Made by a program: the position numbers and the translations under genes | Notes under the pieces: generated by a model | Told to the model about the DNA's origin: nothing | Seen by the model: only the letters and a program-made list of their open reading frames with translations | Databases searched by the model: none | Shown here: positions 6,643 through 63,954 of the stretch, piece after piece | Layout of the letters: each line of letters opens with the position of its first letter | How positions within the stretch are numbered: position 1 is the first letter of the stretch | Assembly: GCA_964542475.1 (NCBI GenBank) | Contig: CAZIUL010000005.1 | Coordinates: forward strand, 91,066 to 155,065 | From: an uncultured Phycisphaerales bacterium | GTDB taxonomy: Bacteria > Planctomycetota > B15-G4 > CAYZWU01 | DNA: 64,000 nucleotides | Direction of reading: 5' to 3'

Positions 6643-8529
6643 GTGGCCAATTTTGAAACTGTCGAAGTCACCACTGATCTGTTGATCGTGGGTGGTGGAA
6701 TGGCTTCCTGCGGCGCAGCCGTTGAAGCCTCTTACTGGGCCAAGAAAAACGGCCTGAAGGTAACCTTGGTTGACAAGGCCGGGATAGACCGCAGCGGCGC
6801 TGTCGCGATGGGGCTGTCCGCCATCAACCAGTATGTCGGCCTGAAAGACGGCGACAACACTGTGAAAGATTATGTGGATTATGTCCGCAACGACCTTATG
6901 GGCGTCGCCCGCGAGGATCTCGTTGCAAGCATCGCCCGTCACGTCGATGGAAGCGTGCATCTTTTCGAGAAGTGGGGACTCCCCATCTGGAAGGACGACG
7001 AAGGCAAGTACGTGCACGAGGGCAGGTGGCAGCTCATGATCAACGGTGAGTCGTACAAGGTCATCGTTGCCGAGGCTGCAAAGAACGCGCTGACCGAGAA
7101 CGGGCACGAGTACTTCGAGCGCGTCTACATCACCGAGCCGCTCATGGACGGTGACCGCGTTGCAGGCGCTGTCGGTTTCAGCGTACGCGACAACAAGTTC
7201 TATGTATTCAAGGCCAAGGCCGTGCTTTGCGCCATGGGCGGCGCTGTGCATGTGTTCAGGCCCAGGTCCACGGGCGAGGGTCTCGGGCGTTCCTGGTATC
7301 CTCCGTTCAACTCCGGCTCCAGCGCTTACTTCACACTGAGGGCCGGCGCCGAGATGACCTGCCAGGAAGTTCGCTTCATTCCCATCCGGTTCAAGGACGC
7401 ATACGGCCCTGTGGGCGCGTGGTTCCTGCTTTTCAAGTCCCGCGCTACCAACGCCTTCGGCGGAGAGTACATGCAGGAGCGCAGGGATGAGCTTCAGAAC
7501 TGGGCTCCATACGGGCTGGTAAAGCCGATTCCGGCAAACCTTCGCAACTGGCTCGGGATGCTCGACATCATGGAAGGCAAGGGCCCGATCTTCATGAGAA
7601 CAGAAGAAGCCATGCAAAAGATCGCGGACAAGTACAAGGACGATCCCAAGGCCCTCAAGAAGAAGAAAAAAGAGCTCGAGTCCGAGGCTTGGGAAGACTT
7701 CCTTGATATGACCATTTCCCAGGCTCACCTGTGGGCTGCCACGAATGTCCAGCCCGAGGAAAAATCCTCGGAAATCGCTGCTTGCGAGCCGTACTTCATC
7801 GGTTCCCACTCCGGCGCTTCCGGCGCCTGGGTCAGCGGCCCCGAGGACCTGGCTCCCGACGAATACTTCTGGGGCTATGCGCACATGAGCACGCTGAACG
7901 GCCTCTTCTGTGCCGGCGACGCTTCGGGCGCATCCAGCCACAAGTTCTCCTCCGGCTCGCACGCCGAGGGCAGGATCGCCGGTAAAGCGGCTGTTGCCTA
8001 CATCGTGGACAACAACTCACAGCCCAATGTGGACATGGCTGCGGTCGAGAAGATCAAAGAAGTTACATACAATCCGTTCGATCTTTTCGAGAAAAACCAG
8101 GACAAGTCCACTGACCCGACCGTGAACCCCGAGTACATCCGGCCCCGCCAGTTCATGTTCCGCCTCCAGAAGATCATGGACGAGTACGCAGGCGGCGTGT
8201 CCGCGCAGTTCAGCACCAACAAGTTCCAGCTCGAGAGAGGTATGGAGCTTCTCGCCTTCCTCAAGGAAGATTCCGAGAAGCTCGCCGCCGAAACGGGCGA
8301 CTACCACGAACTGATGAGGTGCTGGGAAGCGGTTCACCGCATGTGGCAGGCCGAGGCTCACGTGCGCACGGTTCTTTTCCGCGAGGAGACCCGTTGGCCA
8401 GGCTACTATTTCCGTTCAGACACTCCCAAGATGAGTGATGACTGGGCATGCTTTGCCAACTGCAAGTGGGATCCCAAGAGCGGCGAATGGGAGATGATGA
8501 AGAAACCCATCATCAGCATGAACCTCTAA
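6643..8529 (+). CDS. aprA: Adenylylsulfate (APS) reductase alpha subunit (FAD flavoprotein)
   Basis: FAD-binding GGGMASCGAA N-terminus. 628 aa of fumarate-reductase-family flavoprotein, immediately downstream of aprB. GTG start with a GGAGG ribosome-binding site. Confidence 0.95.
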   Translation: MANFETVEVTTDLLIVGGGMASCGAAVEASYWAKKNGLKVTLVDKAGIDRSGAVAMGLSAINQYVGLKDGDNTVKDYVDYVRNDLMGVAREDLVASIARHVDGSVHLFEKWGLPIWKDDEGKYVHEGRWQLMINGESYKVIVAEAAKNALTENGHEYFERVYITEPLMDGDRVAGAVGFSVRDNKFYVFKAKAVLCAMGGAVHVFRPRSTGEGLGRSWYPPFNSGSSAYFTLRAGAEMTCQEVRFIPIRFKDAYGPVGAWFLLFKSRATNAFGGEYMQERRDELQNWAPYGLVKPIPANLRNWLGMLDIMEGKGPIFMRTEEAMQKIADKYKDDPKALKKKKKELESEAWEDFLDMTISQAHLWAATNVQPEEKSSEIAACEPYFIGSHSGASGAWVSGPEDLAPDEYFWGYAHMSTLNGLFCAGDASGASSHKFSSGSHAEGRIAGKAAVAYIVDNNSQPNVDMAAVEKIKEVTYNPFDLFEKNQDKSTDPTVNPEYIRPRQFMFRLQKIMDEYAGGVSAQFSTNKFQLERGMELLAFLKEDSEKLAAETGDYHELMRCWEAVHRMWQAEAHVRTVLFREETRWPGYYFRSDTPKMSDDWACFANCKWDPKSGEWEMMKKPIISMNL

Positions 8530-8997: not shown

Positions 8998-9798
8998 ATG
9001 GATGTGATGAAGAACCTGGATAACCTGAAAAAGTCCGTGCTGAAAGACTATCCGAGAATGACGCTTGACAGCAAGTTCCGGTTCAAATGCCACCCTGGAG
9101 TCGAATGTTTCAACAGGTGCTGCGCGGACGTGAACATCTTCCTGACTCCTTACGATGTGCTCAGGATGAAGAACAGGCTCGGAATCACATCGACAGAGTT
9201 CATGAACCGCTACACAGCCCTGCCCATCGACAAGAAACAGAAATACCCGGTGGTCCTCTTCCATTTAAAGGAAGACGAAGCCAAGAGCTGTCATTTCGTG
9301 GATTCTGAAAAGGGATGCACGATTTACGAGGACCGTCCCTGGGCGTGCCGCATCTATCCGATAGGACTGGCTTCACCCAAGGAGGGGAGCGTCGAGGGAG
9401 AAGAAGAGTTCTATTTCCTGTTGAAAGAAGATGTGTGCCTGGGGCACGATGATGAATGCGAGTTCACCGTGAGGCAGTGGATCGATAACCAGGGTGTAAA
9501 CGAGCACGACGAGTTCGGAATGCTTTACAAGGAGCTCACACTGCACGATTTTTTCGAGAAGGGGGGAGAGCTTAACGCACAGCAGATGGAGATGTTCTAC
9601 ACCGCGTGCTACGATCTGGACATGTTCAAGCGTTTTGTTTTCGAGAGCTCGTTTTTGAAACGGTTCGAGGTTGAGCCCGAGGTTGTCGACGCCGCAAAAA
9701 AAGATGACGAGGCCCTGCTGAGGTTTGCTTTCAGATGGCTCAAGTTCTGCCTTTTTGGGGAAAAAACCATGAAGGTCGTGGATAAGATTAAGAAGTAG
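8998..9798 (+). CDS. YkgJ/UPF0153-family putative Fe-S/Zn-binding protein (Cx4Cx3CC motif)
   Basis: Cys cluster KCHPGVECFNRCC plus downstream CHF…C…C. ATG at 8998 with a GAGGA ribosome-binding site. The ORF-track start at 8977 is a TTG codon. Confidence 0.5.
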   Translation: MDVMKNLDNLKKSVLKDYPRMTLDSKFRFKCHPGVECFNRCCADVNIFLTPYDVLRMKNRLGITSTEFMNRYTALPIDKKQKYPVVLFHLKEDEAKSCHFVDSEKGCTIYEDRPWACRIYPIGLASPKEGSVEGEEEFYFLLKEDVCLGHDDECEFTVRQWIDNQGVNEHDEFGMLYKELTLHDFFEKGGELNAQQMEMFYTACYDLDMFKRFVFESSFLKRFEVEPEVVDAAKKDDEALLRFAFRWLKFCLFGEKTMKVVDKIKK

Positions 9799-9810
9799 AA
9801 AGTAGAAGCG

Positions 9811-9862
9811 GAAGAAAGAAAGAAGAAGAGAACCACGGATAAACACGGATTAACACGGACAA
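9811..9862 (+). repeat. Purine-rich plus CACGGAT direct-repeat element (family C, copy 1)
   Basis: GAAGAAAGAAAGAAGAAGAG followed by AACCACGGAT-AAACACGGAT-TAACACGGAC with ~10-bp periodicity. Related copies at 29913-30000 and 31288-31330. Confidence 0.6.
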
Positions 9863-9890: not shown

Positions 9891-11060
9891 ATGAATCAAA
9901 CCATGAAGATCGAGCCTGATCTGGATTTCATTCGCAATGTTCGGGGCCTTGGCGGAGATTCGTTGAAAAAGTGTTATCAGTGCGCCACATGCTCGGTGGT
10001 GTGCGAACTTTCGCCGGAGCAGAACCCGTTTCCACGCAAGGAGATGCTGTGGGCCCAGTGGGGGCTGAAGGACAGGCTCATGGCGGATCCGGATGTTTGG
10101 CTCTGCTATCAATGCGCGGATTGTTCGACTCACTGTCCGCGAGGCGCGAACCCGGGAGATGTCTTAAGCGCCGTGCGCTCCGCTGTGATCGCGGACTATG
10201 CTTTTCCGCGTTTTTTGGGCAAAGCCCTTTCTTCCCGCGCGGCTGTTCCGTTTTTATTCCTCGTTGCGATTGCAGCCATCTTTCTGATAATGTTTTTCAG
10301 TGCCCCTGATTCGGGCGGCTGGGGCCTCAACGCACCCATCCCCGAACCGGCAGGTGCCGGGTATGAAGGGGGCTATTTCGGAAACTTCCTGAGCCGCCAT
10401 ATTATTGATCCTGTTTTCATTTTCGGTTCCATCCTGATCGTGATCTGCGTGGCTTTAAGCCTCATGCGTTTCTGGAAGGACATGAAAAAGGCTTATGGAA
10501 AAGAAAACGGCCCTTCTTTCGTTTCCTGCGTCATCGAGGCCGTGAAAGAGATAATCACTCATTCATCGTTCAAGAACTGCGTTGAAAACAAACCCCGCTT
10601 CCTGTCGCATTTTCTTGTTTTTTACGGTTTCGTCGGCCTGCTCATTACCACGTCCCTGGCCTTTCTGTTGATAATCCTGGGCCATGAACCGCCCATTCCC
10701 TTGCTGCACCCGGTCAAGATTCTCGGCAACATCAGCTTTGTTGCAATCCTTGCCGGATGCCTGCTCCTGATCGTGCGAAGGCTTGGTAACAGCGACGGTT
10801 CCGTGGGCAAGGGCGGGTACACGAATACTCTTTTCCTCTCCGTTCTTTTTATGGTTGTGATGTCGGGGGGTCTGACACAAGCCGCTCGCCTTGCAGAGGT
10901 CCGACAGCTTTCATACGCGTTTTACTTCATTCACATGACAACAGTTTTTTTTCTGCTTTGGTACTCGCCCTTTTCGAAGTTTGCCCACATGTTCTACAGG
11001 ACCCTGGCCATTGTTTTCGCAAGATCCATTGGCAGGGCAAGGGCAGGAACCGGAAGCTGA
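9891..11060 (+). CDS. qmoC: QmoC-like membrane subunit (HdrC-like 2x[4Fe-4S] N-domain fused to HdrE/NarI-like heme-b membrane domain)
   Basis: CYQCATCSVVCE and CYQCADCSTHCP ferredoxin motifs, followed by about 6 transmembrane helices with conserved His. Sits immediately upstream of qmoA/qmoB. Confidence 0.7.
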   Translation: MNQTMKIEPDLDFIRNVRGLGGDSLKKCYQCATCSVVCELSPEQNPFPRKEMLWAQWGLKDRLMADPDVWLCYQCADCSTHCPRGANPGDVLSAVRSAVIADYAFPRFLGKALSSRAAVPFLFLVAIAAIFLIMFFSAPDSGGWGLNAPIPEPAGAGYEGGYFGNFLSRHIIDPVFIFGSILIVICVALSLMRFWKDMKKAYGKENGPSFVSCVIEAVKEIITHSSFKNCVENKPRFLSHFLVFYGFVGLLITTSLAFLLIILGHEPPIPLLHPVKILGNISFVAILAGCLLLIVRRLGNSDGSVGKGGYTNTLFLSVLFMVVMSGGLTQAARLAEVRQLSYAFYFIHMTTVFFLLWYSPFSKFAHMFYRTLAIVFARSIGRARAGTGS

Positions 11061-15384: not shown

Positions 15385-16590
15385 ATGCCAAAGGATTTAC
15401 CCAAAACGCCAATGCTTGACGAGCTGGAAAAAGGGCCATGGCCCAGCTTTGTCAAAGAGATCAAGATGGCTTCAGAGACCAGCGACATGAGTGTTGATTT
15501 GCTGGGCCAGCTTGAGCTTTCTTACAACGAGAAGATCGGTTACTGGAAACACGGGGGCATCGTGGGTGTCATGGGGTACGGCGGCGGTGTGATCGGCCGC
15601 TATTCGGCCCTCCCCGACAAGTTCCCGAGCATCTCCCATTTTCACACATTGCGGATAAACCAGCCTTCAGGATGGTTTTATACCTCCGATGTACTTCGCA
15701 AGATCTGTGATATATGGGACAGGCGGGGTTCCGGCCTGACCAACATGCACGGTTCCACAGGCGACATCATTTTCCTTGGAACGGTTACTGACGAGCTCGA
15801 GCCTGTATTCGAAGAGCTGACCGCCATGGGATTCGACCTCGGTGGATCCGGCTCTGATGTCAGAACCCCTAGCTGCTGTGTCGGTCCTGCCCGCTGCGAA
15901 TGGGCGTGCTACGACACGCTGAAAACTTGCTACGATTTCACGCAGCGCTACCAGGACGAGCTTCACCGCCCGGCCTTCCCGTACAAGTGGAAGTTCAAGT
16001 TTTCCGGGTGCGCGAACGACTGCGTTGCTGCCAAGGCCCGCGCCGACATCTCGGTGATCGGAACATGGCGCGACGACATACGCGTAGACCAGGCTGCTGT
16101 GAGCGATTATGCCAAGGGCGGCCTGAACATAGTCCGCGACGTGGTAGGCAACTGCCCCTCCAAATGCATGGAGTATGACGGCAATGAGCTCGCGATCGAC
16201 AACTCGAACTGCCGCAGGTGCATGCACTGCATAAACGTCATGACAAAGGCACTCAGGCCCGGAACAGACACGGGCGCCACGGTGCTTATCGGCTCCAAGG
16301 CTCCGATCGTGGAAGGTGCGCTTCTTTCTTCGGTGCTGATCCCGTTTCTCAAGATGGATGACCCGGAAGAGGTGGATGAGTTCTGCGATCTCATGGAAGA
16401 GATTATCGATGTCTGGTGCGAAGAGGGCAAGGCACGCGAGCGTATCGGCGAGTTCATACAGCGTGTTGGAATGGGCAACTTCCTCGACGCAGTCGGCCTT
16501 GAACCGACCCCGGAAATGGTTGCTTTCCCGCGAGACAACCCCTACGTCTTCTACGACCTCAGCGGCGAAGAAGAAGATGATGAAGGTTAG
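15385..16590 (+). CDS. dsrA: Dissimilatory sulfite reductase alpha subunit
   Basis: Siroheme/[4Fe-4S]-binding Cys motifs ([17 protein letters not shown]; CPSKCMEYD; [10 protein letters not shown]). Strong AAGGAGG ribosome-binding site. Followed directly by dsrB and dsrD. Confidence 0.95.
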
Positions 16591-16667
16591 CCATTTCATC
16601 TGCACGGCAGATGCATGGATTAGAGAAGTGAAAATCGTAAATAATGATAGATTAAGGAGTTCTCATA

Positions 16668-17759
16668 ATGGCTGAGCCGGAAAAGAAAAAGAGAATAACC
16701 GATATAGGGCCTCCGAACTACGAACAGTTCCTGCCCCCGGTTATCAAGAATAACTATGGAAAGTGGAAGTACCACGAAATCGTCAAGCCGGGCGTCATGG
16801 TCCACGTGTCAGAGAGCGGTGACAAGCTTTACACTGTCAGGGCCGGATCCCCCCGCCTTGTCAGCACCAAAAAAATCCGCATGTACTCGGACCTGGCTGA
16901 CAAGTACTGCGGCGGGCACCTGCGCTTTACCAGCCGTCACAACGTGGAGTTTATGCTGGATGATGACAGCAAGATCGATGATCTCATCAAGGAGCTCGCC
17001 GATCTCGGCCATCCGGTGGGTGGAATCGGAAACGCCATATCGAGCATCGTGCACACCCAGGGATGGATTCACTGCCACTCGGCAGCGACCGACGCCTCTG
17101 GAATCGTAAAATGCGTCATGGACGATCTGGACGAGTATTTCACAAGCACCAAGCTTCCGGGCAAGATCCGCATCGCCCTGGCATGCTGTCTGAACATGTG
17201 CGGTGCTGTCCACTGCTCGGACATCGCGATTTTAGGTATTCACCGCAAGCCCCCTGTCACCGACCATTCGAAGCTGAAGAAGATGTGCGAGATCCCCACG
17301 GTCAGCGCATCATGTCCCACGGCTGCCATCAGGCCGGCCACGGTGGATGGATTTGAATCCGTGGAAGTGATCGAAGAGCAGTGCATGTTCTGCGCCAACT
17401 GCTACACGGTCTGCCCTGCCATGCCCATGAACGATCCGGTTGACGATGGAGTTTCGATCTGGGTCGGCGGCAAGGTTTCCGATGCGCGCACCCCTCCCAT
17501 GTTCTCCAAGCTGGCGGTTCCTTATATCCCGAACAACCCGCCTAGATGGCCGGAGGTTGTGAGTGTAATAAGGACGATCGTCGAGGTGTGGGCCAAGAAC
17601 GCAAGGCCGTACGAGCGCATAGGCGAGTGGATCGAGCGGGTCACATGGCCGCGTTTTTTCAAGCTCACCGGGATCGAGTTCCAGAAGGAACACATAGACG
17701 ATTTCAAGCATGCCGGCCTGAGTTTCAACAGGACCGCGCAGATTACCCATGTTCAGTAA
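16668..17759 (+). CDS. dsrB: Dissimilatory sulfite reductase beta subunit
   Basis: CHSAATD…[18 protein letters not shown] and a ferredoxin insert [18 protein letters not shown] ribosome-binding site. Confidence 0.95.
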
Positions 17760-29912: not shown

Positions 29913-30000
29913 GGAGGAAGAGGAAGAAAGAAAAAGAGAACCACGGATGGAAACGGATAATTCTTAATAAAGCCAAGAGAACCACGGATGAACACGGACA
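29913..30000 (+). repeat. Family C purine-rich/CACGGAT repeat, copy 2 (two half-units)
   Basis: GAGGAAGAGGAAGAAAGAAAAAGAGAACCACGGATGGAAACGGATAA … AGAGAACCACGGATGAACACGGACA. Confidence 0.6.
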
Positions 30001-30051
30001 CTGTTTTTAACCGGGGCTTGAGGCCAGAGGAAAAAACGCAGCATGAGCGCA

Positions 30052-30093
30052 GGTTACGGTGCCGCAGCAGATGAGGATGAAATATGCGGGTTA
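30052..30093 (-). repeat. Family A 3'-end element, copy 1 (its last 3 nt are the stop codon of the minus-strand gene at 30091..31074)
   Basis: GGTTACGGTGCCGCAGCAGATGAGGATGAAATATGCGGGTTA. Gene-sense reading: TAACCCGCATATTTCATCCTCATCTGCTGCGGCACCGTAACC. Confidence 0.75.
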
Positions 30094-31074
30094 TCCCGCT
30101 TTGATCGCTGCGAGCCTGCGATCGATCTCCCGCCGGAGTTTTCCGATGAACTCTTCTGTCTTGCCCGGTTCGACCAGTTCGATCGACGAGCTGTTGGTCC
30201 GGATTGTGCCGCATGGCAGTCCGAGATCCTCGTAATAGCGGTAGCCGTTTTTGAAAACCTCCCTGAAGAAGACAACGCGGCTCCATTTTAAAAAAGGCAT
30301 GCCTTTCTGATACGGGTTTCGAAAAAGCTCGAAGCTGACAAACCCGCTGTTGTCGACAGGGATAGGCGGGGCAGCCGGGTCGTATTCGAAGAAGGCTCCT
30401 CCTTCAGGAAACAGATGGCGGGCGGATCGGTTGCAGGAGGAGGGCAGGAGCTCGCCGTATGCTTCGAAACGGTCGAACGGTGTACGGAAAACGAGGGAGA
30501 GCTCGTAAAGGCGAAGGAAAACATTGATGCAGTAAAGGTTCCTTTGACGGCTCAGAATTACGGTGCCTTCTTCGGGCGCGGCGAATGTAATCGTCAGCTC
30601 CTGCGTTTCGCACTTGGAACCGCCCTCGAGACAGTGTCCGTTTGTTTGACCGCTGATGTCGATTTCTACGCTGTGGCTCCCTGCTATTACGCAGAGCTTT
30701 TGATTAATGAACCGTATGAAGGCGTTGACATCCGGCTCAGGGAAGGAGCTGTCCAGGGGCAGGGTGAACGATTCTACCACCGGCTCCATGGACGCCCGCG
30801 CGACAGCCGGCCCTGTTGTCACCTGTTCTGATGCGGGGATCCTCTCTTTGCGCGCCTCTTCCGAAAAACCGGGAGCACCCGTTGCTTCCGTCATGATCCG
30901 GGAAATAACGGTTGCAGGTTTGCCGCGGTGAAAACCGTATGGAGCGGTGCCGGGCCACGCATTCGATTCGCAGTGTTGCCCTGTTCGGGCAAGAAAAACA
31001 GAGGCTGCGAGCACCAGGGAAAGGGCAGTGATAACCAGAACGGCGGCTTTCTGCCACTGGTTTCCAGGATGCAT
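30091..31074 (-). CDS. Hypothetical membrane-anchored protein
   Basis: N-terminal transmembrane anchor. No recognisable catalytic motif. Confidence 0.45.
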   Translation of the reverse strand: MHPGNQWQKAAVLVITALSLVLAASVFLARTGQHCESNAWPGTAPYGFHRGKPATVISRIMTEATGAPGFSEEARKERIPASEQVTTGPAVARASMEPVVESFTLPLDSSFPEPDVNAFIRFINQKLCVIAGSHSVEIDISGQTNGHCLEGGSKCETQELTITFAAPEEGTVILSRQRNLYCINVFLRLYELSLVFRTPFDRFEAYGELLPSSCNRSARHLFPEGGAFFEYDPAAPPIPVDNSGFVSFELFRNPYQKGMPFLKWSRVVFFREVFKNGYRYYEDLGLPCGTIRTNSSSIELVEPGKTEEFIGKLRREIDRRLAAIKAG

Positions 31075-31110
31075 CTCTATCCACCTTCGAATAGAAACAT
31101 AATATTAGAG

Positions 31111-31173
31111 TCCGTTGAAAAAGTCAGATCGGCTACGGCCTGACCTTTTGCCCGATCTGACTTTTTCAACGGG
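31111..31173. repeat. Family B long perfect hairpin (21-bp arms, 19-nt loop)
   Basis: CCGTTGAAAAAGTCAGATCGG-ctacggcctgaccttttgc-CCGATCTGACTTTTTCAACGG. A truncated second copy is at 32638-32685. Confidence 0.8.
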
Positions 31174-31287
31174 TTCATAAGCATTCAACGATGTATGAAG
31201 TGACCCGGGAGGCAATAAGATAACAGACAAATTTCGCTCCCGCGGCTTGAGGTGGAGCAGATAAACGCAGAGGAAGCGGCGTAGGGA

Positions 31288-31330
31288 AGGGAAGAAAGAA
31301 GAAGAGAAGCACGGATTGACACGGATAATT
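31288..31330 (+). repeat. Family C purine-rich/CACGGAT repeat, copy 3
   Basis: GGAAGGGAAGAAAGAAGAAGAGAAGCACGGATTGACACGGATAA. Confidence 0.6.
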
Positions 31331-31529
31331 CATAACAAGCAATGATGAGGGCACTGTCATGCCTTGTTGATTGTTTATGGTGTATTCGAACATTGAGCCG
31401 GATTGGATAAACAAAAATATGGCTCGCTTGAGCTGTTGTCTGGGATCAGGTGGTGTAGGATAATGAACCTTCCTATGTTCTCATTGGTTTTTCGGAGAAC
31501 GTAAGAACGGTACAGGAGTAGATTATATA

Positions 31530-32612
31530 TTGGTAGCCATGAACTCAAAAAAAACCGATGGACCAAAACGCCGATCCGTCCTGCTAAAGCTTTTCTTTCG
31601 ACTGCTGTTAATGGTAGTCGCCATTATCGTTGGGGTGCTCCTTGTCGAGATCTTTCTCGCAGTCTTTGCACCCTTTGGCATTGATCACTTCGCGAACCGC
31701 CGCGTCTACGAGGAGGTCTTCGTGGGGCCGGCCGGCGCACCAGGGGTGAACTACGAGCTGAAGCGCGAACGCTCTGTAGAGGCTGGAGTCCTGTACCGTA
31801 CAAACAACCTCGGCGCCCGCGGCGGTGAGGTGGCTATCCCCAAGCCGGACGGCATCTACCGTATAGTGTTTTCCGGCGATTCCAACACCTTCGGGTGGGG
31901 CGTGGCCGAGGAGGACACCTTCGTGGCGCGGGTGGAGCGCGGCCTCAATGAACGTGCTCGGCCTCCCGGCACAAAGCGTTTCGAGTGCGTGAATCTCAGC
32001 GCCTTGGCATACAATACCGTGCAGGAGGCGGCACTGTTGCGCTCCAAGGGGATGATGGCAGAGCCTGATGTGATGTGTATCGTTTTCTGCATGAACGACG
32101 TGTTAATAAAGGGGAAGGACGATGACTATGTGCGTATCGAGCGAGACATGTTCGAGTCGCGGCGGTCAACGCTGGACCGGTTCTTCGCGGACAACCTGGG
32201 ACCTTTCCTCAAACGGGCGGGACTTTACCACATCCACGATTTCCTCACGTACCTGTTTATTTCGCGGTACAACCAGACCTATTACGAAACAGTGGAGAGA
32301 TTTTTCCACGGCATCGATGAAGGCTTTGTCCTTGTGAAGGACTCTTTAAAGGAATTCAACAGGTTCGCGAAGAAGCGAGGGCTTCCGTTTGTACTGCTCG
32401 ACCTGACGGGCAAGAAGGAGCTCGAGGCGCTCGCGAACGAGCACGGCTTCGGTTACGTGAACCTTTTCGATGCCGAGATCCAACGCAGCCCCGAGTATTG
32501 GAATTCGTACTGCGATCCCCACCCCAACGCCGACGGGCATGCCTTCTATGCGGGCCGGATCTTGGATGGGATCCACCCATGGATCGAGGGTGAGGAGTTT
32601 CCAGGGAGATGA
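31530..32612 (+). CDS. SGNH/GDSL-family hydrolase, N-terminally membrane-anchored
   Basis: Transmembrane helix, then the GDSNTFGWG block (catalytic Ser), then a DxxH block near the C-terminus (DPHPNADGH). Confidence 0.75.
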   Translation: MVAMNSKKTDGPKRRSVLLKLFFRLLLMVVAIIVGVLLVEIFLAVFAPFGIDHFANRRVYEEVFVGPAGAPGVNYELKRERSVEAGVLYRTNNLGARGGEVAIPKPDGIYRIVFSGDSNTFGWGVAEEDTFVARVERGLNERARPPGTKRFECVNLSALAYNTVQEAALLRSKGMMAEPDVMCIVFCMNDVLIKGKDDDYVRIERDMFESRRSTLDRFFADNLGPFLKRAGLYHIHDFLTYLFISRYNQTYYETVERFFHGIDEGFVLVKDSLKEFNRFAKKRGLPFVLLDLTGKKELEALANEHGFGYVNLFDAEIQRSPEYWNSYCDPHPNADGHAFYAGRILDGIHPWIEGEEFPGR

Positions 32613-32637
32613 TACCCGTCCCTCGATTCCAAGGAGC

Positions 32638-32685
32638 CCGTTGAAAAAGTCAGATCGGCTACGGCCGGACCTTTTGCCCGATCTC
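32638..32685. repeat. Family B hairpin, truncated copy 2 (left arm plus loop plus 8 nt of right arm)
   Basis: CCCGTTGAAAAAGTCAGATCGGCTACGGCCGGACCTTTTGCCCGATCT. It is followed at 32684-32756 by a further imperfect hairpin (CTGCGTTGCGAGATCCTCAAC…GTTGAGGATCGTCTC…ACGCAG). Confidence 0.7.
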
Positions 32686-32757
32686 TGCGTTGCGAGATCC
32701 TCAACGAATCCCCTGAGGTTGAGGATCGTCTCCCGGCATGAAACGCAGGCACAGCGC

Positions 32758-32800
32758 AGTTTACGGTGCCGCAGCAGAAGAGGATGAAATATGCGGGTTA
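32758..32800 (-). repeat. Family A 3'-end element, copy 2 (contains the stop codon of the gene at 32798..33790)
   Basis: GTTTACGGTGCCGCAGCAGAAGAGGATGAAATATGCGGGTTA. Confidence 0.75.
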
Positions 32801-37190: not shown

Positions 37191-37232
37191 GGTTACGGCG
37201 CCGCAGCAGAAAAGGATGAAATATGCGGGTTA
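37191..37232 (-). repeat. Family A 3'-end element, copy 3 (29 nt downstream of the stop of the gene at 37261..38418)
   Basis: GGTTACGGCGCCGCAGCAGAAAAGGATGAAATATGCGGGTTA. Confidence 0.75.
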
Positions 37233-48100: not shown

Positions 48101-48175
48101 GTGCGGTTCGCGAACTGCCCGGTTCATGCCAGGTTCCAGCCGGGCTCTTCTCTCCCGAAAGCTTGACCCCTCTCT

Positions 48176-48208
48176 GCCGCAGCAGAAGAGTATGAAATAA
48201 GCGGGCTA
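48176..48208 (-). repeat. Family A 3'-end element, copy 4 (truncated; contains the TAG stop of the gene at 48206..48991)
   Basis: GCCGCAGCAGAAGAGTATGAAATAAGCGGGCTA. Confidence 0.65.
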
Positions 48209-51393: not shown

Positions 51394-51517
51394 TCCTGGA
51401 GGTCGGCAGTCCCTTGTAGCGTGTGTTCATTACCGGCGCCGACGGAGCGGCGCCCTCCATTGTTTAACCGACGCATTCACTTTATCCTGGAGGGCGGCAG
51501 TCCCTTGCCGCCTCTTT
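51394..51517. repeat. Family D GC-rich structured repeat, copy 1
   Basis: …CCGGCGCCGACGGAGCGGCGCCCTCCATTGTTTAACCG…CTGGAGGGCGGCAGTCCCTTGCCGCCTCTT. Stems: GGCGCCG/CGGCGCC and GGGCGGC/GCCGCC. Confidence 0.75.
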
Positions 51518-51558
51518 TCTTCCCTGAACCCAGAACGCCTTAACCGCATTATTACCGA

Positions 51559-57650: not shown

Positions 57651-57756
57651 AAGAGGGCGAAAGATTTTTCGCCCCTACGGCGGCTGACTGAGCGGCGCCC
57701 TCCACTGTTTAGCATGCCGTTTTACCTGGAGGGCGGCAGTCTCTTGCCGCCTCTTG
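57651..57756. repeat. Family D GC-rich structured repeat, copy 2 (preceded by hairpin GGGCGAAAGATTTTTCGCCC)
   Basis: CTACGGCGGCTGACTGAGCGGCGCCCTCCACTGTTTAGC…CTGGAGGGCGGCAGTCTCTTGCCGCCTCTT. Confidence 0.75.
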
Positions 57757-61581: not shown

Positions 61582-61792
61582 ACGGAGGGCGGACACATAG
61601 GTCCGCCCCTACGGCGGCTGACGGAGCGGCGCCCTACACTGTTAATAGGTCGGTTGACCATCTTCTGGAGGGCGGCACTCTGTTGCCGCCTCTTCGGTTC
61701 CGGCGCCGACAAAGCGGCGCCCTCCACTGTTTAACCGGTGCTTGCCGTTTCTTCTGGAGGGCGGCAGTCTCTTGCCGCCTCTTCTCTTCTCT
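61582..61792. repeat. Family D GC-rich structured repeat, copy 3 (two tandem units; leader hairpin GGGCGGAC-acatag-GTCCGCCC)
   Basis: Two units ending CTGGAGGGCGGCACTCTGTTGCCGCCTCTTC and CTGGAGGGCGGCAGTCTCTTGCCGCCTCTTC. Each is preceded by (C)GGCGCCGAC.AGCGGCGCCCT(A/C)CACTGTT(A)A. Confidence 0.8.
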
Positions 61793-61879: not shown

Positions 61880-63954
61880 ATGCCCATCGACAAAGACGAC
61901 AAAAACACCTCCCGGGAAAGGGCGGAAAAGCTCTTCCGCGAGTTTCTCGCCCGCCGCGAGGCCGACGACGAGGTGACGGCGGACGAGTATTTCGCCAAAC
62001 ACCCCGAACTCGAGCATGAGCTGAAGGAGCTTTTCAGCACACTGAAGACTGATGAAACGGAGGAGATAGACCTCGGAGAAGGTAAAGCCCCTGCATCCGG
62101 ACCTGCCAAGGACCGGGAAACCATCGGCGACTTCCGCATCATCCGCGAGATCGGCTCGGGCGGCATGGGCACGGTGTACGAGGCGGAGCAGCTTTCGTTG
62201 AAGCGGCGTGTGGCCCTGAAGGTGCTGCCTTCGCACCTGAGTTTTTCTGACCAGGCAGTGTGTAAGTTCCAGCGCGAGGCTGAAGCCGGCGGCAGGCAGC
62301 AGCACGCTGGTATCGTGGGAGTGATTGCGGTGGGCGAGGAGGAAGGCGTCCACTACATTGCCCAGGAGCTGATCAAGGGCGGGTTCACACTGGCTGACAG
62401 GCTCGGGGATCTCGGCAGAGGGAAGCGGGCTACCTGCGCGAGACAGCAGGGCTTGCAGCGGAGATCGCGGACGCGCTGCAGCACGCGCACTCCACAGGCG
62501 TGATCCACCGGGATGTGAAGCCTTCTAACATCCTTCTGACCCCGGAAGGCGCGCCCAAGGTGACCGACTTCGGCCTTGCCCGCATCGAGGATGCGCTCGC
62601 GCTCTCCCGCACCGGGGATTTCGCGGGCACCCCGTACTACATGTCACCCGAACAGGCAGCCTCGCGCCGTATCGGCATCGACCATCGCACCGACATTTTT
62701 TCGCTCGGTGCCACCCTGTACGAGATGCTGACTCTCAAGCTTCCCTTCGAAGGTGACACCAGCCAGCAGGTCCTGCGGAAAATTCTGCTCGAAGACCCGC
62801 CTGACCCGCGAAAGCTCCGCTCGCGCACCCCGCGCGACCTGGCTGTGATCTGCCTCAAGGCCATGGAGAAGAGGCCGGATCACCGTTACCAGAGCATGGA
62901 GGAGTTATCAGCGGACCTGCGTCGTTTTACGAACAACGAACCGATTGTAGCGAAGCCGCCCGGCCCGATCGCGAGGGGCGTGAAATGGGTGCGGCGCCAT
63001 CCCGTGGTAAGTGTTGCGGGAGCGGTTGCGGTTGTGGCGCTTTTGGTGATCTCTGGTTTATGGTGGCGCGCAACAGAGGCGGAGCAGGCAACCGCTGCCG
63101 CGCTTACACGGATCAAAGAGGAGAAGGCTGCTACTGCTGCAGAGCGCGACCGTGCAATAGCAGCCGAGAAAACGGCAAAACAACTCTCTTACTACGCTTT
63201 TCTTCGCTCAACTCAAGATGCCTTGAATGCGAATAACTTTGCGGAGGCGAGGCGAACGCACGAGCTCTGCCCGGAGGAGTACCGCGAATGGGAATGGCAC
63301 CACTTGGCCTTGAGGCTTGATCAGAGCTTGCAGACGTTGAAGGGGCATGAAAACGGAGTAGACTCCGTCGCCTGGAACCCTACAGGCACGCGGATCGTGT
63401 CAGGATCGGGGGATAATACCCTTCGCGTTTGGGCTACGGCTACTACCGGCGAGTGTGTACAAACGCTTACGGGACATGAAAACGGGGTGACCTCCGTTGC
63501 CTGGAATCCTACGGGCACCCGTATCGTGTCCGCTGAGCCTTATGGGGTTTTTCGCATCTGGGACGCAGCCACTGGGGACTGCATACAAACGGTTACGGGG
63601 AATGAAAGCTATGTGTCCTCCCTCGACTGGAATCCGGCTGGCACGCTGATTGTGTCTGGGGCTCTGAATAGGACCGTTCGCGTCTGGGATGCGTCTAATG
63701 GACGGTGCGTGCAAACGTTAGCTGGGCATGAAAGCGGAGTGACCTCTGTTGCCTGGAATCCTTCAGGCACGCGGATCGCGTCCGGGTCATATGATAGTAC
63801 AATTCGTATCTGGGATGCTGCCACTGGTCAGTGCGTTCAAACGATCACGGGGCATGATGATATGTGGGGGGGGATCTCCGTTGCCTGGAACCCTGCTGGC
63901 ACGCGGATCGTGTCAGGGTCGGATGACGAGACCGTTCGCGTCTGGGACGCGTAG
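61880..63954 (+). pseudogene. Ser/Thr protein kinase with transmembrane helix, coiled coil and C-terminal WD40 repeats. The reading frame is broken by a frameshift near 62410-62425.
   Basis: Kinase subdomains I-V (GSGGMGTVYEA…ALKVL) are in the frame of ORF 61880..62503. Subdomains VIb-XI (VIHRDVKPSNILL…DFGLA…GTPYYMSPE) continue in a different frame (ORF 62500..63954). The sequence …LGDLGR|EAGYLRETAGLAAEIADALQHAHSTG is recovered by a 1-nt shift. The gene ends with a TAG at 63952-63954. Confidence 0.55.

Follow-up and report, generated by a model that had tools for sequence, protein, structure and literature searches.

MITEs are non-coding elements of 70-300 bp with terminal inverted repeats of 15-30 bp that lie in intergenic regions and are often co-transcribed with their neighbours; examples are RUP of Streptococcus pneumoniae, which is related to IS630-Spn1, Correia/NEMIS of Neisseria and ERIC/IRU of the enterobacteria (PMC3733652). 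REP units are imperfect palindromes of 20-40 bp that carry GTAG (or CGTC) as a tag at one end (PMC3733652). TIR families with TIRYT tyrosine transposases are moderately abundant, occur as singles, dimers and groups, and are also found in the planctomycete R. baltica (Di Nocera et al. 2013, PMC3733652). The transposase gene of a TIRtron lies between such repeats, many of which carry GGGGWSAS (PMC3733652). The locus described here lies within a 64-kb stretch of DNA, the whole of which is called the window below. A long hairpin at 31108-31177 is, on balance, probably a rearranged derivative of about 70 bp of a MITE-type non-autonomous element, and a second copy nearby (copy 2) would be a truncated left half from the same family. 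The best interpretation of this family is that of a previously undescribed, MITE-like one of the Planctomycetota, which makes it an ordinary kind of feature and not a new regulatory device.

The two arms of the hairpin, CCGTTGAAAAAGTCAGATCGG (31112-31132) and CCGATCTGACTTTTTCAACGG (31152-31172), are 21 nt long, 100% complementary and separated by a 19-nt gap, which gives a perfect hairpin of 61 nt. The initial annotation had reported a perfect hairpin of 63 nt at 31111-31173; the hairpin itself with its 21-nt arms and 19-nt loop is real, but that span is one base off on each side and adds a T/G pair to the perfect part; apart from this, the hairpin had been described accurately. Stem pairing reaches 31108/31176 and then covers 25 positions including two G-T pairs. 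Folded as RNA, the hairpin has an energy of -40.3 kcal/mol (z = -7.65), and none of 200 shuffles was as good. With up to three mismatches, the arm occurs three times in the 64-kb window versus 0.00 expected from shuffles. The left arm (31108..31132, plus strand) is a family repeat of the left-terminus type, GAGTCCGTTGAAAAAGTCAGATCGG, of which 31112-31132 is the perfectly paired core. The spacer CTACGGCCTGACCTTTTGC (31133..31151, plus strand, 19 nt) is the loop of a 7-bp stem that lies just inside the left end in subfamily 1; copy 2 has the same base at 18 of its 19 positions, and three relatives from other sources (L002, L005 and L008) align with it in this segment. The right arm (31152..31177, minus strand) is a second repeat of the left-terminus type in inverted orientation, its reverse complement being TGAACCCGTTGAAAAAGTCAGATCGG, and shows 96% complementarity with the left arm of copy 2 across 25 nt. 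Among the three arms of the window the outermost 4-6 nt differ (GAGTCC, GAACCC and GAGCCC), whereas the 21-nt core is invariant, which hints at some constraint and counts against the MITE-type reading.

The hairpin is located between divergently transcribed genes, as had been stated before, and upstream of both, with 34 nt to the ATG of gene 30091-31074 on one side and 362 nt to a GDSL/SGNH gene (31539-32612) on the other. A weak sigma-70-like match on the minus strand (31099..31127), with a -35 box CTGACT in the left arm and a -10 box TATTAT in the flank, points towards gene 30091-31074. It agrees with the consensus at 9 of 12 positions and is a consensus match only, no better than background (two sites versus 1.0 expected). 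If transcribed, the hairpin would place a stem of -40 kcal/mol in the leader of this gene. It is likely that no host function is required of the hairpin and that any effect on expression would be incidental.

Copy 2 aligns at 32634-32684 with 31108-31158 of the hairpin (96% identity over 51 nt) and starts 21 nt past the stop codon of the GDSL/SGNH gene. Its terminus (32634-32658) includes the first strand of the 7-bp stem, AGATCGG at 32652-32658, and the second strand, CCGATCT, follows at 32678-32684. A nhmmer search with a model of the left half of the family extended the match to 32633..32717 on the plus strand (E = 2.3e-24, model positions 2-86), and over 76-82 nt copy 2 is 84-87% identical to L002, L005 and L008. 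Past CCGATCT it follows the family consensus and not the right arm of the hairpin, and as a whole it folds no better than shuffles (z = -0.25). No right terminus is present; where the right half would be expected, at 32717/32718, copy 2 adjoins an unrelated repeat, a D1 unit on the minus strand (32718..32800), which is not part of the element. On these alignments, copy 2 belongs to a further element of this family, of which it is a truncated left half. It had been described as a truncated copy of the hairpin directly after the SGNH stop. The left arm, the spacer and CCGATCT are indeed kept, but the polarity has to be reversed, as the family consensus marks copy 2 as the normal form and the hairpin as the derived one.

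Public scans for the arm were made by exact match only, with 19- and 21-mers, and found single arms in other organisms. The matches were few, and as the scans also missed the JGI contig of this very population, which holds three exact arms, their number is a lower bound. An identical arm was found in a Pirellulales MAG (L001) as part of a full-length element, in a 1-kb contig (L002) in which the sequence continues like copy 2, and in full copies on two contigs of one metagenome (L005 and L008). A solo left-end fragment of 35 nt lies in a contig classed as viral (L006, equal to L009), and solo fragments of 22 nt, a 22-mer common with the arm, are present in L004 and L007. A further match in L003 looks like a chance match inside a gene, and a match in the window at 9960 (TCGTTGAAAAAGT) was likewise attributed to chance, lying in the gene of a Cys-rich Fe-S protein. 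The left end is identical over 21-27 nt in the three window arms, L001, L002, L005, L006 and L008, while the gene contexts differ. To the right of the arm, L002, L005 and L008, and L001 more weakly, resemble copy 2 (..CCGATCTCTGCGTTGCGAATTCCTCGACGAAT..) and not the hairpin. The elements of L001, L005 and L008 end about 165 nt further on with ..GCACTTT(T/A)TCAACG..CTGC, an imperfect inverse of their start. The left-half profile additionally detected three diverged full copies in a 21-kb contig (L012) and, in L005, a second copy, which is short. In all, L001, L008/L015, L005 and, three times, L012 have full-length copies with inverted ends. Per contig, this amounts to three copies in 21 kb in L012, two in L005 and two loci in the window. 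In this genome only these two loci were found in about 74 kb, with no further copies in the 8.7 kb past the left end of the window or in about 1 kb past its right end, and a blastn comparison of the full element with PLSDB plasmids gave no match.

The members of the family range from 70 bp (window) through about 90 bp (L005b) to 164-212 bp (L001, L008 and L012). Their terminal inverted repeats are imperfect and comprise about 17-19 bp in full copies, as compared with 21-25 nt in the window arms. The two ends are consistently unlike, with GCAGCCCGTTGAAAAAGTCA on the left and, as reverse complement, GCAG.CCGTTGATAAAGTGCTTCGA on the right; the family end sequences are GCAGCCCGTTGAAAAAGTCAGATCGG and GCAGGCCGTTGATAAAGTGCTTCGA, and the right end of full-length relatives, GTTGATAAAGTGCTTCGA, differs from the right arm in the window. 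At 11 of 18 termini, versus about 1 in 16 by chance, a TA lies precisely 7 nt outside GTTG, and the inverted repeat stops there. The terminal stem is the only long helix kept in the consensus structure, with negligible covariation. Inside the left end lies a subterminal inverted repeat, which is AGATCGG-19 nt-CCGATCT in subfamily 1 and CCGACC-4 nt-GGTTGG in the L012 subfamily. In single-strand folds, the L012-type stem is drawn in two of three copies and the AGATCGG/CCGATCT pair is not drawn, so the latter stem is read from the sequence. Whole elements fold back as DNA with z = -6.2 (L001) and -8.7 (L008). The suggestion of a MITE-type element in the initial annotation was borne out by these features, as the family is dispersed, non-coding, built on inverted repeats and sharply bounded, and occurs in unrelated contexts in other genomes. 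Searches in Rfam yielded nothing for L001, L002, L005, L006 and L008, and the best results for the window region were spurious miRNA-precursor matches, whose scores of 21 and 18.5 bits fall far short of the gathering thresholds of 60 and 69. In the literature, a search for the motif gave unrelated primer sequences only.

The neighbours of the family include the spacer between a response regulator and a kinase, a PLP enzyme and the end of a phage ORF. Every copy is intergenic, the spacers being divergent, convergent or same-direction ones, and the orientation of the copies relative to transcription is inconsistent. In L006, a 341-aa ORF on the minus strand (31-1056, ..AADLTFSTGS*) ends inside the solo 35-nt left terminus, and 30 nt separate this terminus from the end of the contig. 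The sample number, JGI 3300009009, is adjacent to 3300009008, from which the population of the window is known. The contig L012 also carries an SGNH homologue, 56-57% identical to that of the window. One of its diverged full-length copies (9653-9818) lies 185 nt upstream of this homologue with the left-type end towards the gene, as in the window, and the flank after the terminus is TAAG in both this copy and the window hairpin. No other similarity was found between L012 and the window upstream of the SGNH genes. The upstream synteny differs, and the element may mark a rearrangement breakpoint. Two closer SGNH homologues (L013 and L014) have spacers of 77 nt and 90 nt without the element.

An idea about mobility can be obtained from L001, where the element separates a response-regulator gene from a histidine-kinase gene. 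Removal of the element together with one TA restores a regulator of 202 aa, the TGA of which overlaps the start of the kinase (GTGATG); before insertion, the regulator would have ended ..VPHSYANSLAGPL, overlapping the kinase start. Such an overlap of stop and start is usual in translationally coupled two-component genes. Removal of both TAs also leaves a plausible regulator, of 195 aa, ending 19 nt before the kinase start. Insertion of the element in L001 is thus well supported by the reconstructed reading frames. A duplication of TA would be the favoured accompaniment, and only favoured, because TA is its own reverse complement and could represent the last two bases of the inverted repeat. 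Checking the flanks for a target-site duplication, as had been proposed, revealed TA on both sides of the hairpin, at 31178..31179 (unstranded) with the standard family offset of 7 nt from GTTG (TGCT TA TGAACCC GTTG), and at 31106..31107 (unstranded) one base nearer to GTTG than in other family members. Duplication of TA is a feature of RUP and Correia. Together with the terminal inverted repeats, the TA flanks point to a DDE transposase of the IS630/Tc1-mariner type, and the element would presumably have been moved in trans by such a TA-duplicating enzyme.

A transposase with matching ends was found neither in the window nor in the element-carrying loci, where an unlinked RayT-like gene (L015) was the exception, and none lies near the fragments of L004 and L007. 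No empty site was obtained by way of the SGNH homologues P0002-P0005, whose neighbourhoods are non-syntenic. Contigs from four other samples (L016-L019) are identical to the window across the hairpin and show no presence/absence polymorphism, three of them (L016-L018) also span copy 2 and are identical there, and the four differ from the window at only 2-6 positions elsewhere. Short-read contigs of the same sample (L010, L011 and L020; SRR8062346 / SAMN10231913) are 100% identical to the window. The lack of a transposase and of an empty or polymorphic site speaks against the MITE-type reading, as do the small number of public matches and of loci in this genome.

With regard to its origin, the hairpin consists of two left-type termini arranged head to head, which meet at AGATCGG/CCGATCT and have a common 19-nt loop, whereas full copies have unlike ends. 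Origin by a simple internal deletion is excluded because both arms are of the left type; such a deletion would leave one left-type and one right-type end. Quasi-palindromes can become perfect by template switching in replication, a mechanism reportedly described by Ripley in 1982 and by Dutra and Lovett in 2006. In the simplest route to the hairpin, a template switch across the 7-bp stem during replication would have copied the complement of the left terminus to the right side. Alternatively, two inverted left ends might have recombined, and either route would entail loss of the remaining part of the element. Because the window arms do not agree in their outer 4-6 nt, the event that formed the palindrome is unlikely to be very recent. 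With TA present on both sides, one of them shifted by a base, movement of the 70-bp unit as a mini-element is also conceivable.

A different view of the same repeats is that of a REPIN- or TIRtron-like element which is moved as single-stranded hairpin DNA by a Y1 HUH transposase (RAYT or TIRYT), with the hairpin as an inverted doublet; we regard this as unlikely. It draws on a 311-aa PF01797 (Y1_Tnp) gene 0.9 kb from the element in L008/L015, homologues of which are named RayT by JGI, and on the occurrence of singles (L004, L006 and L007), an inverted doublet (window) and long fold-backs, arrangements that resemble those of REP and TIR repeats (PMC3733652). A short inverted repeat inside the left end is found in both subfamilies, although its sequence differs. 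Solo left-end fragments of 35 and 22 nt and a left-left dimer are not typical of DDE transposition, and they fit a TIRYT/TIRtron mode somewhat better than classical DDE products. Yet the Y1 gene of L015 is not flanked by an element or an inverted repeat, none of 12 loci (L021-L032) with two homologues of this gene carries a copy of the element, and the window, L001, L005 and L012 are devoid of a Y1 gene. About 100 kb of element-carrying DNA of planctomycete type was screened, and the Y1 family is so abundant (399 matches) that one neighbour by chance is unsurprising. The gene (L015 6556-7491, equal to L008 7564-8361) is a RayT-like Y1_Tnp with 399 homologues at E <= 1e-5, mostly of 313 aa and about 52-59% identical, many of which lie on contigs of 1.0-1.7 kb; those examined are single-copy, have conserved neighbours and lack flanking inverted repeats. 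The 25-nt arm has neither an internal palindrome nor a GTAG/CGTC tag. The REP part of the earlier proposal was thus not upheld, the 25-nt unit not being a 20-40-bp palindrome, and the search for a tnpA(REP)/IS200-family gene that it recommended led only to the unflanked gene of L015, with no Y1 transposase in the window. An IS200/IS605-derived element of the PATE type, with hairpins inside both ends, no terminal repeats or duplication and a fixed tetra- or pentanucleotide target, was rejected because terminal inverted repeats and TA on both sides are present and the subterminal repeat is found at the left end only. A related and likewise unlikely proposal is that the family is not a DDE-type MITE but a new hairpin-forming repeat of the Planctomycetota, either handled as single-stranded DNA by a RayT/TIRYT-like Y1 transposase or kept by the host. 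The invariant 21-27-nt core and the short stem would then be a recognition module, and the hairpin a functional inverted doublet, analogous to a REPIN without GTAG.

The hairpin might instead be a cis-acting element selected by the host, which we likewise consider unlikely. It would then control expression or mRNA stability as a protein-binding site or through an RNA stem, formed either in the leader of gene 30091-31074 or by the SGNH mRNA at its 3' end. The very stable RNA stem and the weak -35/-10 match at the left arm would suit such a role, the diverged family copy upstream of the SGNH homologue in L012 is suggestive, and three window arms and five other genomes agree in the 21-nt core but vary in the bases next to it; however, part of this agreement is an artefact, because the searches used exact 19- and 21-mers. 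The same sequence is present in unrelated contexts, L013 and L014 are closer SGNH homologues without the element, the window and L012 share no other upstream similarity, and inconsistent orientation relative to transcription and negligible covariation also argue against a cis-acting function. An intrinsic terminator or attenuator is very improbable. A strong stem-loop and the location of copy 2 21 nt past a stop codon would be expected of one, but there is no T tract on either strand, a terminator scan made no call, copy 1 lies between divergent genes, where none is needed, and the fold of copy 2 as a whole does not surpass that of shuffles (z = -0.25). Terminators have a short G+C-rich stem and a 3-8-nt loop, a geometry far from the 21-bp stem and 19-nt loop present here; the initial annotation had likewise noted that the size and perfection of the hairpin exceed those of typical terminators. 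A coding role, as a small protein or as the 3' end of a gene, in an opposite-strand frame ..ADLTFSTG(C/S)*, is the least credible of these proposals. This frame has its stop in L001, L002, L005, L006 and L008 with TGC/TGT and TAG/TAA variation, but this stop merely comes from the flanking TA, the open frames span 13-53 codons without sharing a start, and indels break every frame, such as a 1-nt indel in L008. No homologue was found among 5.8 billion proteins; a profile of the only frame open in every copy (MKKSDRLR.., forward strand) had no match at E <= 10 in this set. An integron attC site was also considered and rejected, as the ends read GTTGAAA...TTTCAAC on both strands, the opposite order to RYYYAAC...GTTRRRY, and neither a cassette array nor an integrase is present. 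The preferred reading stays that of a rearranged MITE-type element.

Beyond this family (B), the intergenic regions of the window are a mosaic of at least three short repeat families (B, D1 and D2). D1 units are about 60-83 nt long and occur in at least five copies (30034-30093, 32718-32800, 37191-37232, 48175-48205 and L034:1-120, the last just past the right end). On the minus strand, D1 begins TAACCCGCATATTTCATCCTCTTCTGCTGCGGC, and this start coincides exactly with the stop codon of a minus-strand gene at 30093 and again at 32800; the contig Ga0118727_1000473 ends inside a D1 unit with the same GATCGTCTCC..CATG head. D1 might represent another mobile repeat, or else a module of the 3'-UTR or terminator kind. 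D2 (9816-9850, 29915-29998 and 31283-31338) combines a purine-rich tract (GGAAGAAAGAAGAAGAG) with two or three direct CACGGAT boxes at a spacing of 10 nt. One copy precedes an Fe-S (CCG-type) gene by 40-75 nt, another precedes the SGNH gene by about 200 nt, and D2 looks like a putative binding-site array for a protein of the response-regulator type. Further repeats of 30-90 nt with 85-96% identity were noted at 51433-51522, 57670-57755, 61604-61789 and 63343-63922; those at 63.3-63.9 kb belong to a kinase/WD40-repeat gene, close to where every public contig of the population stops.

The window holds a core locus of dissimilatory sulfate reduction with aprA, qmo/hdr-like genes, dsrAB, dsrC and dsrMKJOP (6643-8529, 15385-17759 and 20-27 kb); sat, aprB and an H+-pyrophosphatase gene lie just upstream of it (L037), and sulfatase genes are found nearby. 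The 90% cluster of AprA includes MHC4942206.1, named 'Planctomycetota bacterium' at NCBI. The three short contigs mentioned above, L010 (31182-32804), L011 (31111-32661) and L020 (30064-31140), have ends that fall inside the hairpin, copy 2 or a D1 unit or a few bases away from one of them. The repeats fragment assemblies around the SGNH gene, which explains short-read breaks beside the dsr/apr locus. The finding adds an undescribed family of small inverted-repeat elements to the Planctomycetota, where few such elements have been catalogued, and gives a probable example of how one end of such an element can turn into a long perfect palindrome. No long-standing question is opened by it, and as a caution the hairpin should not be taken for an operator or a terminator.

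In comparison with REP and REPIN sequences, the family is alike in that an inverted doublet forms one long hairpin, in the occurrence of single, doublet and clustered forms, and in its extragenic location; it differs in having true terminal inverted repeats and TA flanks, and in lacking a palindromic unit, a tag and a flanked RAYT. TIRtrons resemble it in their inverted-repeat units, which occur as singles or dimers, and a Y1_Tnp gene is near one locus (L015); this transposase gene, however, is not flanked by repeats, and the window arms are without GGGGWSAS. The likeness to quasi-palindrome correction lies in the extension of a short imperfect repeat, AGATCGG-19 nt-CCGATCT, to a perfect palindrome, a process deduced from the end product, whereas usual events concern a few bases and here 14-18 nt and the loss of the remainder of the element would be involved. 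From RUP, Correia and ERIC, the family is set apart by the absence of sequence similarity and of a known parent insertion sequence, by its unlike ends, by low observed copy numbers and, in the window, by an atypical copy in the form of a 70-bp left-left inverted dimer. With these elements it has in common its size, its non-coding nature, terminal repeats, intergenic sites, TA flanks and the fold-back of the whole element.
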